DNA of 39,667 nucleotides from Candidatus Nealsonbacteria bacterium CG07_land_8_20_14_0_80_39_13 (GTDB lineage: Bacteria > Patescibacteriota > Minisyncoccia > Minisyncoccales > GCA-002779355), in contig PEWS01000027.1 of NCBI GenBank assembly GCA_002779355.1, forward strand, positions 1 to 39,667, given 5' to 3'. Both the position numbers and the translations under genes were made by a program. Every line of letters starts with the position of its first letter. Positions within the stretch are counted from its first letter, which is position 1. This document shows positions 7,628-38,607 of the stretch, in pieces. Under the pieces are notes generated by a model that saw only the letters and a list, made by a program, of their open reading frames with translations, searched no databases and had not been told where the DNA came from.

Positions 7628-9034
7628 TTAGTTGATTTTGGCGATGGCCAGGGAGTTATTAATCTCTATTCTTTTCCAGTTGCCTCCGTGAATTATCAGA
7701 ACATTCTCTCCGACTTTAACCAATCCTTGTTTTTTTAATTCATTTAGGATGGGGAGCGGGCTTCTGAAAGCTCCTGTTGGAAATTTTACAAAAAAACTTG
7801 TTACTCCATACAGCAAAGCTGAAAACTCGGCGGTTTTTTTATTGTTGGTTATGGCAATCACCGGTATGCTTGGCCTTAAGCTGGATAGGGCTCTGACTGA
7901 ATACCCGGTGGAAGTGAAAACAAGAGCTTTCGTTATATTGAAGTCTTTATGATTTTCAATTATTTCCATGCCTGCTTCAGAAATCAATTCCACAAAGCTG
8001 TTGGGCTTAGGAGCTAATCTTAAAGAGGGGCATTCTTTTTCATTGAAATCCAATATTCGGGACATTGTCTCAATTGTCTTGATCGGATATTTTCCGGCGG
8101 CGGTTTCTTCGGAAAGCATTACTGCGTCGGTGCCGTTGAAAACAGCATTGGCGACATCCGTCGCCTCCGCTCTTGACGGGCTGGGATTATCAATCATTGA
8201 CATAAGCATTTGGGTGGCGACGATAACCGGTTTTCTTTTTTCCCGGCATTTGGAAATGATGGATTTTTGCCAGTAAGCGATCTGCTCAATTGGTATCTCA
8301 ACTCCGAGGTCTCCTCTGGCTATCATTATTGCGTCAGCCGATTCAATGATTTCTTCTATATTGTTCAGAGCTTCTTTATTTTCTATTTTAGCGACGATTT
8401 GAGCTGTTATTTTTCTTTTCTTCATTTCCTTCCTTAGGAATTCAACGTCCTCCTTTGTTCTGCAGAAAGAAAGGGCGATAAAGTCAATTTTAACTCTGGC
8501 CGCCATATCCAGTTTTTTCAGGTCGTCGTTGATAAGGGAAGGCAAGCCTGTCTTTTTCCCGGGGAAATTGACGCCTTTCCTGTTTTTTATAATTCCGTCT
8601 CCGAGGGCTCGGGCGTATAAAAATCCGTTTTTCTTTTCAATCACTTCAAATTCAAAAAACCCATTATCTATTGAGAAAAGGTCTTTCGGTTTCAGCATTT
8701 TTAAAATATTGGAGTGGGGAATGACTATTTTTATTTCCGGAGAGGAAAAAGATTTCCCGAAAATTAAGGACTCGTTTTTTTTGAAAATTACAGCCTCTTT
8801 GTTTTTTGTGAAAATTCTGACTTCAGGTCCCTGGAGGTCTATCATGATGCCGACAGGGATTTCCAGAGAATCTGATATCTCTTGGACTATTTTTATTTTT
8901 TCATTATGCCATTCAACGGTAGAATGTTTCATATTGAAGCGAAAAACATTCACGCCGGCTTTTATAAGAGCGGCTATGTCTTTAGGGCTTTCCGAAACTG
9001 GCCCTATTGTAGCAATAATTTTCGTCTTTTTCAT
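7628..9034 (-). CDS. pyk: Pyruvate kinase
   Basis: TKIIATIGP, NVFRFNMKHS, MIARGDLGVEIP, ATQMLMSM, and a C-terminal domain. Confidence 0.95.
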   Translation of the reverse strand: MKKTKIIATIGPVSESPKDIAALIKAGVNVFRFNMKHSTVEWHNEKIKIVQEISDSLEIPVGIMIDLQGPEVRIFTKNKEAVIFKKNESLIFGKSFSSPEIKIVIPHSNILKMLKPKDLFSIDNGFFEFEVIEKKNGFLYARALGDGIIKNRKGVNFPGKKTGLPSLINDDLKKLDMAARVKIDFIALSFCRTKEDVEFLRKEMKKRKITAQIVAKIENKEALNNIEEIIESADAIMIARGDLGVEIPIEQIAYWQKSIISKCREKRKPVIVATQMLMSMIDNPSPSRAEATDVANAVFNGTDAVMLSEETAAGKYPIKTIETMSRILDFNEKECPSLRLAPKPNSFVELISEAGMEIIENHKDFNITKALVFTSTGYSVRALSSLRPSIPVIAITNNKKTAEFSALLYGVTSFFVKFPTGAFRSPLPILNELKKQGLVKVGENVLIIHGGNWKRIEINNSLAIAKIN

Positions 9035-9236: not shown

Positions 9237-10703
9237 ATGGCGCTGAAGAAGAAAAAAACGAAAAAAATAAATAAAAAAACAAAACCAATCTTCGCTAAGG
9301 CGATGACCAAGAAAAGGCCCGCCCTTATTAAGGTTGTAGAGGCGCAGCCGATTGACGAGAAAGGAGATTTTCTGAAGAAGGTCAAAATAAGGATAATCGG
9401 CATCGGCGGAGGCGGAGGGACAATTGTTTCAGAAATTGTTCCTAAGGTTGAAAAGGTGAGTTTTGTTATTGCCAATACCGATCGCCAGGCGCTGAAAGTG
9501 GCCAGTAATAAAGCTATTCATTTCCAATTCGGAGAGAGTTTAACAAGGGGTTTGGGGACAGGCATGAACGCCGGACTAGGAGAGGAAGTGGCTCTGCAGG
9601 AAAAGGATAAAATAGAAAAATTATTGCAGGGACAGGATTTGTGCATAATTATTTCTTGTTTGGGCGGAGGCGCCGGTTCAGGCGCAGCTTCTGTCTTTGC
9701 CCAAATTTCTAAAAATTTAGGGAACTTAACTTACGGAATATTTACTTTGCCTTTTAAATTTGAAGGAGAGAGAAAAATGGAAATTGCCAAAGAAGCCTTG
9801 AAGAAAATAAAACCGAAATTGAACGCCATTTCAATTATTCCTAACGAAAGAATTTTCCAAATTATTGACAGAAACACTCCCTTAAAGTCAGCTTTATCGG
9901 CAATAAATGAAAAATTAGCCGATAACTTGGAAGATCTCGTGGAAATTATTTATGAACCGGGGCTTATTAATATTGATTTTGCCGATTTGAGAACTGCTTT
10001 AAGCGGAGATAGGGGAAAGTTGACTTATTTGAATACAATTAAGATTAAAAGAAGCGAGAACGCTGTTCAGGAGGCGATTGAGAAAGTTTTAAATTCTCCG
10101 CTCTATTCCTACGGAATTAAAGGGGCTAAGGGAGTTTTGCTTAATATCGCCGGAGAAGATAATTTAAGCATAGAAGAGGTTAATCAAATTTCAGAAACAG
10201 TTTCCTGTCTTTTGAATAAAGATGCGAAAATTGTTTTCGGGATTTCTCAAGGGAAAAAATATGCTGACGCTATAAAAACAACTTTGCTTGCCGTCGGTTG
10301 CGGGGCAAAAATTTTCTCTGAAGAAAAGGAGGCTAAGAATGACAATGAGGAGGGAAAACCGAAGAAAATACAGAAAATAAAAAAAAGAAAAATTAAAAGA
10401 AAAATTAAAACAGAAAAAGCAAAAGTTCCCAGAAAAAAGAATATTTCTAAGAAAAAAAAGAAGAGAGTTTCTCAAGAGAAAGCTACGGATAAAAAAGAAG
10501 AAAAAACAGAAGGTATTCAAAATCCGGTTGAGGTAAGCGAGGAGGGGAAATACCCGCCCGTTCAGGAATCAAAGCCTATGGAGATCAGCAGGAAAAATGC
10601 TCTTCAAATGAGAAAAGATGCTGAAGATGAAGAAAAAGAAATGATAGAAAAGGAAGAATTTTGGGAAACGCCGGCTTTTTTAAGAAGTAAAAACATCAAA
10701 TAA
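9237..10703 (+). CDS. ftsZ: Cell division GTPase FtsZ with Lys-rich N- and C-terminal extensions
   Basis: IGIGGGGG, GLGTGMNAGLG, GGGAGSGAASV tubulin-like motifs. The conserved C-terminal peptide TPAFLRSK is present. Confidence 0.92.
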   Translation: MALKKKKTKKINKKTKPIFAKAMTKKRPALIKVVEAQPIDEKGDFLKKVKIRIIGIGGGGGTIVSEIVPKVEKVSFVIANTDRQALKVASNKAIHFQFGESLTRGLGTGMNAGLGEEVALQEKDKIEKLLQGQDLCIIISCLGGGAGSGAASVFAQISKNLGNLTYGIFTLPFKFEGERKMEIAKEALKKIKPKLNAISIIPNERIFQIIDRNTPLKSALSAINEKLADNLEDLVEIIYEPGLINIDFADLRTALSGDRGKLTYLNTIKIKRSENAVQEAIEKVLNSPLYSYGIKGAKGVLLNIAGEDNLSIEEVNQISETVSCLLNKDAKIVFGISQGKKYADAIKTTLLAVGCGAKIFSEEKEAKNDNEEGKPKKIQKIKKRKIKRKIKTEKAKVPRKKNISKKKKKRVSQEKATDKKEEKTEGIQNPVEVSEEGKYPPVQESKPMEISRKNALQMRKDAEDEEKEMIEKEEFWETPAFLRSKNIK

Positions 10704-33470: not shown

Positions 33471-34962
<1,492 letters not shown>

Positions 34963-35767: not shown

Positions 35768-35831
35768 GCGTGTGTAGCTTCGGCCTCGTCCAGAGGACGA
35801 TCAGCCTTTGGCTGAGGTTAGAGCGCGTCAC
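35768..35831 (+). pseudogene. Decayed duplicate of the 5' half of tRNA-Ile (nt 1-32), with 37 nt replacing 6 nt of the D loop
   Basis: GCGTGTGTAGCT + 37 nt + GTTAGAGCGCGTCAC, compared with the intact GCGCGTGTAGCT-CAGTTG-GTTAGAGCGCGTCAC at 36091-36123. Confidence 0.7.
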
Positions 35832-35839
35832 CTTTGGAT

Positions 35840-36100
35840 ATGTTCTGTGTGTATTTTTTGAAAAGCATTAAAAATGGTAAGATTTACGTAGGATTTACTT
35901 CTAAAAATATTGAGGTAAGGGTTGAAGAACATAATAGCGGTTCAAACGTTTTTACGAAAAACAATAAGCCATGGGTTTTGGTATATTATGAGATATTTAG
36001 TTGTGAAAAATGCGCTAGAGCGAGAGAGAAGTTTTTTAAATCGGGTATGGGTAAAAGATTAAAAAAGATAATTGTAGATAATTTTAATATGCGCGTGTAG
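35840..36100 (+). CDS. Small GIY-YIG nuclease family protein
   Basis: VYFLKS..GKIYVGFTSKNIEVRVEEHNSG is the GIY-YIG motif. The stop codon TAG lies inside the tRNA-Ile gene. The track start 35834 is TTG. Confidence 0.8.
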   Translation: MFCVYFLKSIKNGKIYVGFTSKNIEVRVEEHNSGSNVFTKNNKPWVLVYYEIFSCEKCARAREKFFKSGMGKRLKKIIVDNFNMRV

Positions 36101-36164
36101 CTCAGTTGGTTAGAGCGCGTCACTGATAATGACGAGGTCCGTGGTTCGAGTCCACGCTCGCGCA
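36091..36164 (+). tRNA. tRNA-Ile (anticodon GAU)
   Basis: GCGCGTG-TA-GCTC-AGTTGGTTA-GAGC-G-CGTCA-CTGATAA-TGACG-AGGTC-CGTGG-TTCGAGT-CCACG-CTCGCGC-A. Confidence 0.9.
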
Positions 36165-36243
36165 CTCTTTCACCTCGCTCTCTTGCCGTTATTCGGCAGG
36201 GGGAACGGAGTTTTGTTTTAAGGCGGTTTTTTGTTTGAAATAC

Positions 36244-36272
36244 TTGACAAGATTTATATAGTATGCTATACT
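36244..36272 (+). promoter_or_regulatory. Consensus promoter TTGACA-17-TATACT
   Basis: -35 at 36244-36249 and -10 at 36267-36272. An ATG follows 6 nt later, at 36279. Confidence 0.7.
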
Positions 36273-36278
36273 TACATC

Positions 36279-36422
36279 ATGAGAGTTAATCCTGAGCAGA
36301 CATACGAAAAAGTGCTCAGGGGAAAGTACGGAGAGGTGTATTATCTTTCGTTCACAAGGGGGACGCCCGTACCGCCGAACGTAGGCGATTGCAGGAGATT
36401 TTCTCATCCATGGAAGAGCTAA
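36279..36422 (+). other. Leaderless 47-codon sORF or a ~127-nt structured RNA; status unresolved
   Basis: As an ORF it reads MRVNPEQTYEKVLRGKYGEVYYLSFTRGTPVPPNVGDCRRFSHPWKS. The same bases fold into a closing stem ATGAGAG/TTCTCAT plus three hairpins. Confidence 0.35.
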
Positions 36423-36854
36423 AGAAGTTCCTTCTTAGTCAGGAGGATTTCAATGATTTTTCTAGATTTGAAGATGCAGAGAGCTGCATTTTCAAGGACG
36501 AAAAATTCCCGTGCGCCTTCACGGGATAGGTGTTTAAGGGAGCACGACAATAATTGTCCTCTGCCCCTATATTTCTAAGTTCGGAATTACATTATTAAAA
36601 AATTACGAATTTAGAAATGCTCCGGTCCCGCTGAAAGCGGGACGGGGGTTTAAAGAAAGAAGTCGGAAGCGCTTTCGCGACGGGGATATCTCTTTCCAGT
36701 TCTTCGCAAGAAGAACAATCTCTGTTACGAAAGCACCCCCGGCTTTTTTCAGTCCAGAGGACTATTCAGCCCAGAGAGCTTTCAAGTTGTAAATGTGTCA
36801 ATGAGGAGGTAAAATAGAAAAATAAGAACAATATTTAGAATATTTTTGAACTCT

Positions 36855-37814
36855 ATGAAAACTCGAAAGGAAGATAATATAATTTACCATGGTAGTAATT
36901 GGGTATTGGTTGAAACCCAAGATGATAATCTTTTTGATATATTGTACAAAGAAGGGTACGAGAGAGTGGTTTTGGTGAATCAATTGGGTGTGGACGGTAC
37001 ATTTGAATATATTATTGGCAAAAAAACAGAAAAAACGGATGATTTTCCGGTCGGCCCAGAAACCGAAGAAGGATCGATACTTTTCGAATTAAATAAATTA
37101 GAGATGGGTTGGGCTGGCAGTATTCAGTATGGTGGAGCGCCAATAAATACTGATGGTTCGAGATCATTGCTTACTCCGCAGATGGTCATCAGTGTTATTA
37201 ATAAAGTTGTCAATAAAAAGGATGAACAAAATTTTCTAATCGGCAAAGATCAACAATTTGAAATTGACCCGGAAAAATTATTCTCCAAAGAATCATCATG
37301 CTATCAAGTGGAAACAGATCGGCTGGGCAAAGTATCCTATGTAAACATAGATAACGCCGCTACAACTCCGCCTTTTATATCGGTGCAAAATGGCGTTAAT
37401 GATTATTTAAAGACTTATGGTTCAGTTCATCGTGGAGCTGGTACTAAATCAAAAATATCTACTGATATTTACGAACAAACACGGCAAGTCATTAAAAATT
37501 TTGTTGGGGCTCCGGAAAATTTTTATGTTCTTTTTTCCGGAAACACAACTGGAGCCATGAATAATGTAGCCTATTTTTTCTCATTTCTTGATGGAAAGGT
37601 GGCGGTATCGGAAATAGAGCATAGCTCATCTTGGTTGCCATGGATTAAAGCTGAAGGTGAAAGATCGTTGGGAGCAAATCGCGTTGATTTTGCACATGTG
37701 CATGAAACACAAGAAAAAATACAAGAAGCGGGTCGTGAAATGGTTTTGAGGTATCCACTCAATAGCGAAGGTGAGTTTGACCTCGCTGGCATTGAAGAAA
37801 TGCTAAAAAAATAA
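36855..37814 (+). CDS. Class V aminotransferase / cysteine desulfurase-like PLP enzyme, 5' fragment with ~150-aa N-terminal extension
   Basis: NIDNAATTPPF, SVHRGAG, FSGNTTGAMN, EIEHSS..PW. It ends at a TAA right after an A7 run. Confidence 0.75.
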   Translation: MKTRKEDNIIYHGSNWVLVETQDDNLFDILYKEGYERVVLVNQLGVDGTFEYIIGKKTEKTDDFPVGPETEEGSILFELNKLEMGWAGSIQYGGAPINTDGSRSLLTPQMVISVINKVVNKKDEQNFLIGKDQQFEIDPEKLFSKESSCYQVETDRLGKVSYVNIDNAATTPPFISVQNGVNDYLKTYGSVHRGAGTKSKISTDIYEQTRQVIKNFVGAPENFYVLFSGNTTGAMNNVAYFFSFLDGKVAVSEIEHSSSWLPWIKAEGERSLGANRVDFAHVHETQEKIQEAGREMVLRYPLNSEGEFDLAGIEEMLKK

Positions 37815-37833
37815 TAAAATTAAGGCGTTTATT

Positions 37834-38607
37834 TTGACTGCCTCGTCAAATCTGACTGGTTATCGTCCAGATATTAAAAAAATTGGCGAACTTGTTCATA
37901 AATATGGAGCATACTATATTATCGATGCTTGCCAATTTTTGCAACACCACAAAGTTGATATGATGGAAATGGGAATAGACTTTCTGGCCGTTTTCGGACA
38001 CAAATTTTACGCGCCTTATGGTGGTGGTTTTCTTATTGGGCCAAAAAACTTTTTGGATGAATTTTTGCCGTATCAGATTGGCGGTGGCAACTTGCCCTAC
38101 ATTACAAGGGAGGGTGTGTTCTTGCGCTATAAAAATCAATTAGCGCATGATCCCGGTACACCAAACGCCGTTGGCGCTGTCTCTATGGCTATCGCGCTTA
38201 ATCAATTGAAAAAAATCGGAATCGAAAAAATTGAATCATATGAATCAAATTTAGCGAGAGAAGCATTTGACGTTTTGAAAAAAAACGAAAAGGTTCGTCT
38301 GCTTGTAAAGAGTAATCACTTAAGTACAGTAATACCTTTTATCATAGAAGGGCAGGATTCACAGATAGTTGCCGAACGCTTAAATAAAGAATTTGGAATA
38401 GGCGTTCGCGCTGGAAGTTTTTGCGTGTATGACGTGGTAAGAAATCTTTTGGGAATAGAGGACGAGCAGAAAATAATTGAGGCCGTTAATCATGGCGATA
38501 CCTCGCTTATACCAGGAATTATTCGGGCATCTTTTGCGCTTTGCAACTCAAGAAATGATGTAAAAAGATTTATTCAAGCAATAAATTGCGTTACTCAAAA
38601 TAATTAA
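37834..38607 (+). CDS. Class V aminotransferase-like PLP enzyme, 3' fragment (frame open from 37807)
   Basis: TASSNLTGY, IIDACQ, the PLP-lysine block FGHKFYAPYGGGFLIG, and VRAGSFC. Confidence 0.75.
   Translation: MTASSNLTGYRPDIKKIGELVHKYGAYYIIDACQFLQHHKVDMMEMGIDFLAVFGHKFYAPYGGGFLIGPKNFLDEFLPYQIGGGNLPYITREGVFLRYKNQLAHDPGTPNAVGAVSMAIALNQLKKIGIEKIESYESNLAREAFDVLKKNEKVRLLVKSNHLSTVIPFIIEGQDSQIVAERLNKEFGIGVRAGSFCVYDVVRNLLGIEDEQKIIEAVNHGDTSLIPGIIRASFALCNSRNDVKRFIQAINCVTQNN

Follow-up and report, generated by a model that had tools for sequence, protein, structure and literature searches.

Correia repeat-enclosed elements (CREE) of Neisseria are hairpins of ~100 nt that can provide promoter elements at their end, work as terminators, and, as RNA, become RNase III substrates; they occur in hundreds of copies and have terminal inverted repeats and TA duplications. 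In E. coli, GraL is the greA leader terminator. As for CPR bacteria, almost no non-coding RNAs are described beyond the universal ones, and the element reported here, with at least 29 sequences, represents a well-supported addition.

The window, i.e., the whole stretch of DNA analysed (39,667 nt, contig PEWS01000027.1 of Candidatus Nealsonbacteria bacterium CG07_land_8_20_14_0_80_39_13), belongs to a CPR genome of 586 kb in 44 contigs (G000). Similarly to GOLLD, ROOL, OLE, and HEARO, the locus is an unusually structured non-coding stretch of a compact genome beside a tRNA gene. In contrast to these RNAs, however, it has no Rfam match, its conserved unit is a single hairpin of 72–115 nt, and the tRNA neighbourhood is not conserved.

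The gap between tRNA-Ile and the PLP gene

The genes follow the order 16S rRNA, methyltransferase, GIY-YIG, tRNA-Ile, gap, and class V PLP enzyme, with the 23S and 5S genes on a different contig from 16S rRNA. From the end of tRNA-Ile (36165) to the PLP ATG (36855) the gap measures 689 nt, in agreement with the ~690 nt given by the initial annotation, and the block at 36530–36750, described there as ORF-free, indeed has zero ORFs of at least 30 aa wholly within it. All the stems listed previously are present in the sequence as well. The G+C content of the hairpin block is 44%, compared with 39% for the whole window. The features are as follows:

33471–34961, 16S rRNA (Rfam at gathering threshold)
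36091–36165, plus strand, tRNA-Ile(GAU), left border of the gap (ARAGORN; Rfam tRNA 70.8 bits)
36244–36272, plus strand, putative sigma-70-type promoter TTGACA-17-TATACT with TG extension (11/12 consensus matches)
36279–36529, plus strand, orphan small ORF, 83 codons when intact, split in the window
36507–36526, plus strand, H1, UCCCGUG-CGCCUU-CACGGGA, overlapping the last codons of the orphan ORF
36537–36568, plus strand, helix AGGGA.GCA.GACAA-UAA-UUGUC...UGCCCCU containing H2 (GACAA-UAA-UUGUC, 36546–36558)
36571–36618, plus strand, H3, 13-bp A/U-rich stem with one G.U pair (36571–36583 with 36606–36618)
36619–36649, plus strand, H4, GUCCCGC-UGAAA-GCGGGAC (36625–36643) with closing helix GCUCC/GGGGU
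36655–36750, plus strand, member of a conserved hairpin RNA family (model R2: 84.8 bits on the plus strand, 39.9 on the minus strand)
36699–36716, plus strand, apical hairpin GUUCUUC-GCAA-GAAGAAC
36744–36749, plus strand, U6 tract completing an intrinsic-terminator shape, as read in the sequence
36751–36780, plus strand, copy of a 9-copy double-hairpin repeat (AGTCCAGAGGACTAT and a degenerate second hairpin) between the terminator and the next promoter
36787–36815, plus strand, the PLP gene's own promoter TTGTAA-17-TAAAAT, 3′ of the U tract
36855–38607, plus strand, class V PLP enzyme gene (Pfam PF00266), with a frameshift at an A7 run of this assembly

Neither direct repeats of the tRNA-Ile 3′ end nor target duplications were found around the block. 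Just upstream of tRNA-Ile, positions 1–90 of the ENA contig L010 diverge from window positions 36000–36090, a difference compatible with a missing or altered GIY-YIG insertion in that strain. According to ARAGORN, the 96%-complete assembly G000 contains 36 tRNA genes and 0 tmRNA genes.

The predicted start of the promoter at 36244–36272 (~36279) coincides with the ATG of the small ORF, and the 96-nt hairpin and the U6 tract together form the first canonical terminator encountered 3′ of this promoter. The ORF is split by a T3/T4 length difference at 36346–36348: the T4 allele, present in two independent assemblies (L010 and L011), gives an intact 83-codon ORF (P0001), and the T3 allele, shared by the window and L012, leaves it frameshifted, with frames 0 and 2 overlapping at 36296–36422. 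This polymorphism, which opens or closes the ORF, separates otherwise near-identical assemblies. L012 has two more base changes within the ORF, at 36455 and 36510, the second of which weakens H1. Beyond near-identical strain copies, no homologues were detected among 5.8 billion clustered proteins, by exhaustive HMMER search of 1.8 billion representative proteins, or in viral contigs, and the ORF is therefore regarded as an orphan. Its codon-usage score falls in the 1st percentile of G000's genes, and the region folds better than chance (z = −3.7). The ORF may represent a genuine lineage-specific gene or be non-coding altogether.

Regarding the fold, the plus strand of 36500–36752 reaches −107.5 kcal/mol, whereas dinucleotide-shuffled sequences reach −64.8 ± 4.6 (z = −9.2); none of 200 shuffles equals the native fold. 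The minus strand has a z of −5.6, and eight G.U pairs of the plus-strand fold become A x C mismatches on the opposite strand. The long-range GGGGG...CCCCC pairing suggested by the initial annotation is left unused by the minimum-energy fold, which instead pairs AGAAAGAAGUCGG (36655–36666) with CCGGCUUUUUUC (36739–36750) into a single 96-nt hairpin. Folded alone, this hairpin has an energy of −44.3 kcal/mol.

Among the preceding stems, H2 has no homologues according to the searches made for its helix, and the same holds for H1, which is terminator-like on the minus strand. As for H3, the frame CUAUAUUUyUAAG...UUUArAAAU is common to the window and genome G040, with compensatory inner pairs in the model R1 alignment, and an upstream comparison reveals hairpins resembling it in G141 and G218; its conservation extends to few genomes. 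In G040 the position of H4 is occupied by a GC hairpin, and H4 itself belongs to a generic terminator-like hairpin repeat with 5 copies in G000 and further copies in relatives. H3 appears to be lineage-specific and H4 a generic repeat. A weak promoter considered at 36544–36573 (ACGACA-18-TATATT) was rejected because its predicted start lies inside the conserved H3 stem.

The 9-copy repeat has the form [A/C]GTCCAGAGGAC[T/G]AT followed by CAGCCTCTGGCTG. Two of its sites lie in the window (35787–35801 and 36751–36765), and the others in G000 are C14:13071–13085, C14:18507, C2:3884, C24:9819, C26:2217, C30:6139, and C38:10024. One copy resides within a duplicated tRNA-Ile 5′ half, one in the C-terminal tail of the rpsP open frame, and several immediately 5′ of opposite-strand start codons. 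An incomplete copy of the AGTCCAGAGGAC repeat accounts for a 12-nt inverted repeat (36552–36563 with 36755–36766).

The hairpin family: sequence, covariation, and distribution

According to Rfam 15 at gathering thresholds, the window contains only 16S rRNA and tRNAs. Relaxing the cutoff to E ≤ 10 for 36100–36900 yields only sub-threshold snoRNA/miRNA noise, and seven other family members give only sub-threshold generic hairpin matches. A blastn-type search of the gap (taken as 695 nt) in 60 + 3 relatives returns only promoter-like and H4-like snippets. Covariance models were more productive. The first one (R1), built from 36567–36752, matched 26 of the 401 genomes of the order, and the alignments show that the terminal hairpin is the conserved part. 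The second one (R2), based on 11 diverse members, finds the family hairpin in 54 of the 401 genomes (E ≤ 1e-3), representing more than 25 families. Since strict filters were used in these searches, the resulting 13%, or about one genome in eight, is a lower bound. Homologous regions are thereby confirmed in related genomes.

In the window, the hairpin consists of a 25-pair outer stem with a C x A mismatch, the CU-rich loop AUCUCUUUCCA (36688–36698), and the apical GCAA hairpin. The family consensus reads AAAGArGyCAGArGCGCUyUCGC ... GyGGGAGCACyUCUGGyCUU and shares the conserved C x A mismatch, U.G stem pairs, and the CU-rich loop (A)UCUCUCUCCUC. The most conserved unpaired motif is UCUCU, with an invariant C38 and at least 90% conservation of the Ts on either side. 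The apical hairpin, by contrast with these parts, varies freely (GCAA, GAAA, AAAA, or UUUU) or is missing, and the total length ranges from 72 to 115 nt.

Covariation of the terminal hairpin, for which a comparative alignment had been suggested, is supported by 29 sequences. In the 25-pair outer stem 95.8% of the cells are paired, compared with 81% in shuffles and at most 55% for slid partners. Double changes are found in 18 of the 25 pairs, the doubly changed cells number 116 versus 33 expected, and none of 500 column shuffles reaches any of the observed covariation measures. Strain variants in the basal stem turn U.G into C-G (36663) and G.U into G-C (36746). R2 scores are ~20–70 bits higher on the plus strand than on the minus strand. 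Taken as sequence evidence, these results identify 36655–36750 as a copy of what appears to be a conserved, strand-specific, previously uncatalogued hairpin RNA element. The proposal of a novel ncRNA consequently holds for the last 96 nt of the block, which covary, are strand-specific, and are absent from Rfam 15. It does not hold in the form of a large ornate RNA: the Rfam scan for such families near tRNAs has no match in the gap, and the hairpin family is not generally linked to tRNA genes.

Each genome that carries the family has one locus, except G040 and G006 with two each. Among 300 phylum-wide genomes, R2 reports only one strong match outside the order. A degenerate pattern scan of 185,579 species gives 9 matches confirmed by R2, all of them CPR records belonging to this group, with labels including Candidatus Nealsonbacteria, Candidatus Paceibacterota, "Parcubacteria group", and "Patescibacteria group"; three of the 9 are submitter-labelled "Saccharibacteria". 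The element thus sampled appears confined to one Parcubacteria order including Candidatus Nealsonbacteria, with almost none elsewhere in the phylum. Pattern matches in Acidimicrobiia and other non-CPR records score at most 26 bits or nothing with R2 and are considered unrelated, and an R2 match in the G000 23S rRNA (C38:19708–19802, 23.8 bits) is a false positive. In exact-word scans of viral contigs one word has 0 matches, and the other has 2, both within an unrelated phage coding region. Distant blastn searches of phage and plasmid collections give no match.

Genomic context and candidate functions

The next same-strand gene is khpA (KH_KhpA-B, Pfam) in 14 of 30 loci, with the layout rpmF-nusB-rnc-rpsP-[1–2 kb island]-hairpin-khpA-trmD. 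The ORFs between rpsP and the hairpin are small and mutually unrelated, and the islands vary between genomes. Elsewhere the copy lies ahead of greA (two loci), prfB, pheS, alaS, or a DAHP synthase gene, is positioned facing recR, or comes after a tRNA-Thr gene. The closest ORF upstream is encoded on the opposite strand in 8 of 28 loci, and at these the hairpin cannot form the 3′ end of the ORF in question. The gene khpA itself is present in 30 of 31 genomes. With search filters off, the hairpin is found at 3 of 30 relatives' khpA loci, and rpsP is more than 1.1 kb away in all three; among these 30 khpA loci, none with rpsP within ~500 nt of khpA has the hairpin. In G000 rpsP and khpA are adjacent and separated by a TTGACA-17-TAAAAT promoter, with neither island nor hairpin. 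Judged by this pattern, the element appears to be accessory rather than housekeeping.

In 9 of 29 loci, versus 1.9 expected per 6-nt window, a −10 hexamer with at least 5/6 matches follows the hairpin tail (CTTGAC/CTTTTC) at an identical distance. Because of this fixed offset the tail is taken to supply the −35 box, and the coupling holds for the khpA, prfB, and DAHP synthase loci. U-tract ends are seen in 10–11 of 30 members, including that of the window. The second copy of G040 shows the same layout as the window, i.e., a consensus promoter, a ~65-codon ORF, a hairpin, and the family hairpin with a U tract.

Several further elements are seen at the khpA loci. A conserved structured leader AAAUAGUAGC...GGCUGAAAGGUCGGGCUAC of ~90–110 nt lies 3′ of the khpA promoter in L062 (G101), L061 (G023), and L093 (10090–10160; G030). 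It has no Rfam match, and this leader may be a second uncatalogued RNA element, namely a khpA 5′ UTR. The rpsP-khpA island of L093 (Ca. Nealsonbacteria ER9H13parc1) carries the module AGCAAGCGCAGAAUUGUUC[GA]UUGGA before each small ORF (8486–8515 and 9375–9400) and its own TTGACA-17-TATAAT promoter directly after rpsP. In L061 a ~100-nt insert between the hairpin and the khpA promoter has terminal inverted repeats CCGTTAGAAGTT...AACTTCTAACGG, with TTGAC(C/A) on its flanks; the insert resembles a miniature transposable element by which the −35 box was duplicated.

The best explanation, in which confidence and doubt are evenly balanced, is that the block forms the tail of a small accessory unit, with the last hairpin as a conserved RNA-level terminator/insulator module. 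The unit would comprise the near-consensus promoter, the orphan 83-codon ORF, H1–H4, and the final 96-nt hairpin with U6, inserted between tRNA-Ile and the PLP gene and having an untranslated hairpin-rich tail. The usual place of the element would be the downstream end of a variable orphan-gene island, against a housekeeping promoter, mostly that of khpA, with greA, prfB, and the DAHP synthase gene as other examples. As RNA, the element may end transcripts from strongly promoted accessory genes or mark them for processing, so that the next promoter would fire undisturbed; a protein probably recognises the conserved stem sequence and the invariant UCUCU loop. In the window, the hairpin would terminate the unit starting at 36279, ~40 nt before the PLP promoter. 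The stem at 36655–36743 followed by U6 at 36744–36749 on the plus strand indeed has the intrinsic-terminator shape. The khpA-type copies, however, end in CUUGACA instead of a U tract and for this reason are not canonical intrinsic terminators. Four further points weigh against this explanation: a stem sequence retained in more than 25 families is unexpected for a plain terminator, the −10 boxes at the hairpin base in five loci fit a free-standing small RNA, the nearest upstream ORF runs in the opposite direction in 8 of 28 loci, and single-stranded DNA hairpins would also covary and tolerate G.T pairs.

The genomic grammar of the element is unusual: a single-copy, accessory hairpin closes a variable island of orphan genes and is fused to the −35 box of a housekeeping promoter. 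This offers a starting point for asking how essential operons are protected from accessory genes with strong promoters in genomes of ~0.6 Mb and how the content of the rpsP-khpA hot spot is exchanged.

The foremost alternative, tentative and rather unlikely, is that the 96-nt hairpin represents a free-standing trans-acting sRNA of ~95 nt, with its 5′ end at the hairpin base and its 3′ end at the U tract. Its UCUCU/CU-rich loop would bind, e.g., KH-domain proteins such as KhpA/KhpB or purine-rich mRNA sites. This is suggested by the single copy per genome, the U tracts of 10–11 of 30 members, the position of UCUCU as the most conserved unpaired motif, and the frequent synteny with khpA, as well as by extended −10 boxes (TGnTATAAT / TGnTAAAAT) whose distance to the first pair is 5–8 nt in G175 and G066, and by −10 boxes near the hairpin base in G243 and G065. 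The binding of a C-rich 10-mer by KhpB of T. thermophilus, as cited in a preprint (bioRxiv 10.64898/2026.10.12.757534), points in the same direction, and the CU-rich loop beside a KH-protein gene makes a testable candidate ligand for KhpA/KhpB. The hairpin, however, is carried by ~13% of genomes and khpA by 30 of 31, the khpA-type copies have no terminator tail, and most loci, the window included, have no promoter at the hairpin base. The −10 box enrichment is weak (6 hexamers in five loci vs ~2.5 expected), and in the window H4 adjoins the hairpin base, with the only good promoter located 410 nt upstream.

It is also possible, albeit unlikely, that the hairpin acts as DNA, namely as a folded single-strand, attC-like recombination or boundary site of a cassette-exchange system that would place swappable small-gene islands beside housekeeping promoters. 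It occupies the constant end of islands that differ in every gene, is missing where rpsP and khpA adjoin, and occurs at several unrelated sites, with two copies each in G040 and G006; moreover, as in attC, the imperfect palindrome of 72–115 nt combines conserved arms and a mismatch with a variable tip. Against this, each island rather than each cassette has one hairpin, RYYYAAC/GTTRRRY core sites are absent, and no recombinase gene is seen among the listed neighbourhoods. Neither a duplicated half-site nor a target duplication is present at the window's borders, and the U tracts and the fixed promoter offset indicate a transcriptional role.

A broader and likewise doubtful proposal takes the hairpin as the constant part of a so far undescribed "insulated promoter / cassette" system in Nealsonbacteria-like Parcubacteria. 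Present in single copy, the "hairpin + −35" unit would travel with swappable orphan islands and park them before housekeeping genes, khpA above all. A dedicated protein, either the KhpA/KhpB pair, whose gene usually follows the hairpin, or a new recombinase, would recognise the conserved stem and the UCUCU loop, and the hairpin would accordingly serve either as an RNA partner of KH proteins or as the recombination site in a new mechanism of cassette exchange.

A chance accumulation of decaying palindromic repeats, lacking any function of its own, seems improbable as an account of the whole block. The idea agrees with the multi-copy nature of H4 and the AGTCCAGAGGAC element and with the frameshifted ORF of the unit. 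The terminal hairpin, however, covaries, keeps its sequence across many families, and has a fixed geometry relative to promoters. Chance assembly is unlikely for 36655–36750 and possible for H1 and H2.

As for the PLP gene, it is intact in metagenome contig L043 (582 aa, single ORF), and G174 (C165) has a 551-aa open frame. Since both are open, the split in the window (37805–37836, at the A7 run) is attributed to a frameshift or assembly error and not to two genes. The L043 orthologue, 87% identical, has an HTH gene and ~70 nt upstream, with the block absent; the N-terminal half also has an 89% orthologue in G174, where the contig is cut at the gene. Similarity between the window and L043 starts only at ~36805, inside the PLP promoter, whose −10 box lies within the conserved part. 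Because the block is absent upstream of the L043 orthologue, it is not part of a conserved PLP leader. The large cis-regulatory leader put forward by the initial annotation is contradicted by both this absence and the position of the PLP promoter 3′ of the U tract. A riboswitch-like or attenuator leader controlling the PLP gene, which would suit the shared strand and the order of promoter, structure, terminator, and gene, is accordingly very improbable: the closely related locus does without it, the gene has its own promoter after the terminator, the family hairpin precedes unrelated genes elsewhere, and Rfam riboswitch and leader models match nothing. For annotation, a false lead is removed, leaving the PLP gene with no large leader.

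The least credible reading is a divergent housekeeping RNA (SRP RNA, tmRNA, RNase P RNA, or 6S RNA) missed by standard models. The SRP RNA model RF00169 matches 0 of 21 genomes of the order, with positive controls in 12 of 14, and PF00448 has no true match in 21 relatives or 151 phylum genomes (controls positive in 14 of 14). An Ffh motif scan and tblastn with an approximate E. coli-like Ffh query find nothing in G000, and the same approximate query finds nothing in 12 single-contig genomes, run with no positive control. In G000, too, neither SRP RNA nor an SRP-type GTPase (Ffh/FtsY) was detected, which is unexpected in itself. Either the SRP pathway is missing in G000 and its relatives or it is hidden by the data or tool. 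The zero count for SRP RNA, the absence of tmRNA in the ARAGORN output, and the single-copy hairpin of ~100 nt would favour such an RNA; its limited distribution (13% of genomes), however, refutes it, and the apical loop and stem vary freely where SRP helix 8 is invariant, no Ffh/FtsY-type GTPase is found in G000, tRNA-like ends and P4 motifs are absent from the sequence, and Rfam has no match at E ≤ 10. SRP RNA in particular is ruled out by the negative RNA and GTPase checks, the 54/401 distribution, and the variable apical loop; tmRNA, RNase P RNA, and 6S RNA are rejected on sequence and Rfam results, with the RNase P P4 motif GGAAAGUCC...ACAGAA and the tmRNA acceptor, T arm, and tag ORF all absent from the sequence. 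The leader and housekeeping-RNA readings are essentially excluded.

Comparison with known systems

Among repeats, the REP/MITE-like class is multi-copy, as are H4 (5 copies) and AGTCCAGAGGACTAT (9 copies). The family hairpin, in contrast, has one locus in G000 and 1–2 in other genomes. It resembles CREE in being a hairpin-forming element of ~100 nt with a promoter element at its end; however, there is one, rarely two, per genome, and target duplication is not seen.

Members of the family are, like integron attC sites, imperfect palindromes of much the same length that close variable genes, mostly orphans, at their 3′ end; conserved arms, an unpaired base, a variable tip, and strand specificity are also shared. 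Unlike attC, it has one hairpin per island, the R″/R′ core sequences are absent, and no integrase is seen nearby; its ends read AAAGArG...CUGGyCUU(UUU/GACA), with U tracts and a fixed promoter offset.

Regarding GraL, the similarity is limited to G006 and G159, where the hairpin and U tract stand ~30 nt before greA. The family hairpin, however, also precedes khpA, prfB, and other genes, and no sequence relation is expected.

The window's copy resembles intrinsic terminators in that a stable stem runs directly into U6 and closes a transcription unit, and it resembles long bidirectional A tract-stem-U tract terminators in that its 5′ A-rich arm pairs with the U tract. In contrast to intrinsic terminators, the family has a stem of at least 25 pairs, with sequence conserved and covarying across more than 25 families, and its hairpin is single-copy and has an invariant UCUCU loop. 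Furthermore, ~40% of members carry CUUGACA in place of the U tract, and this sequence acts as the −35 box for the promoter that follows.
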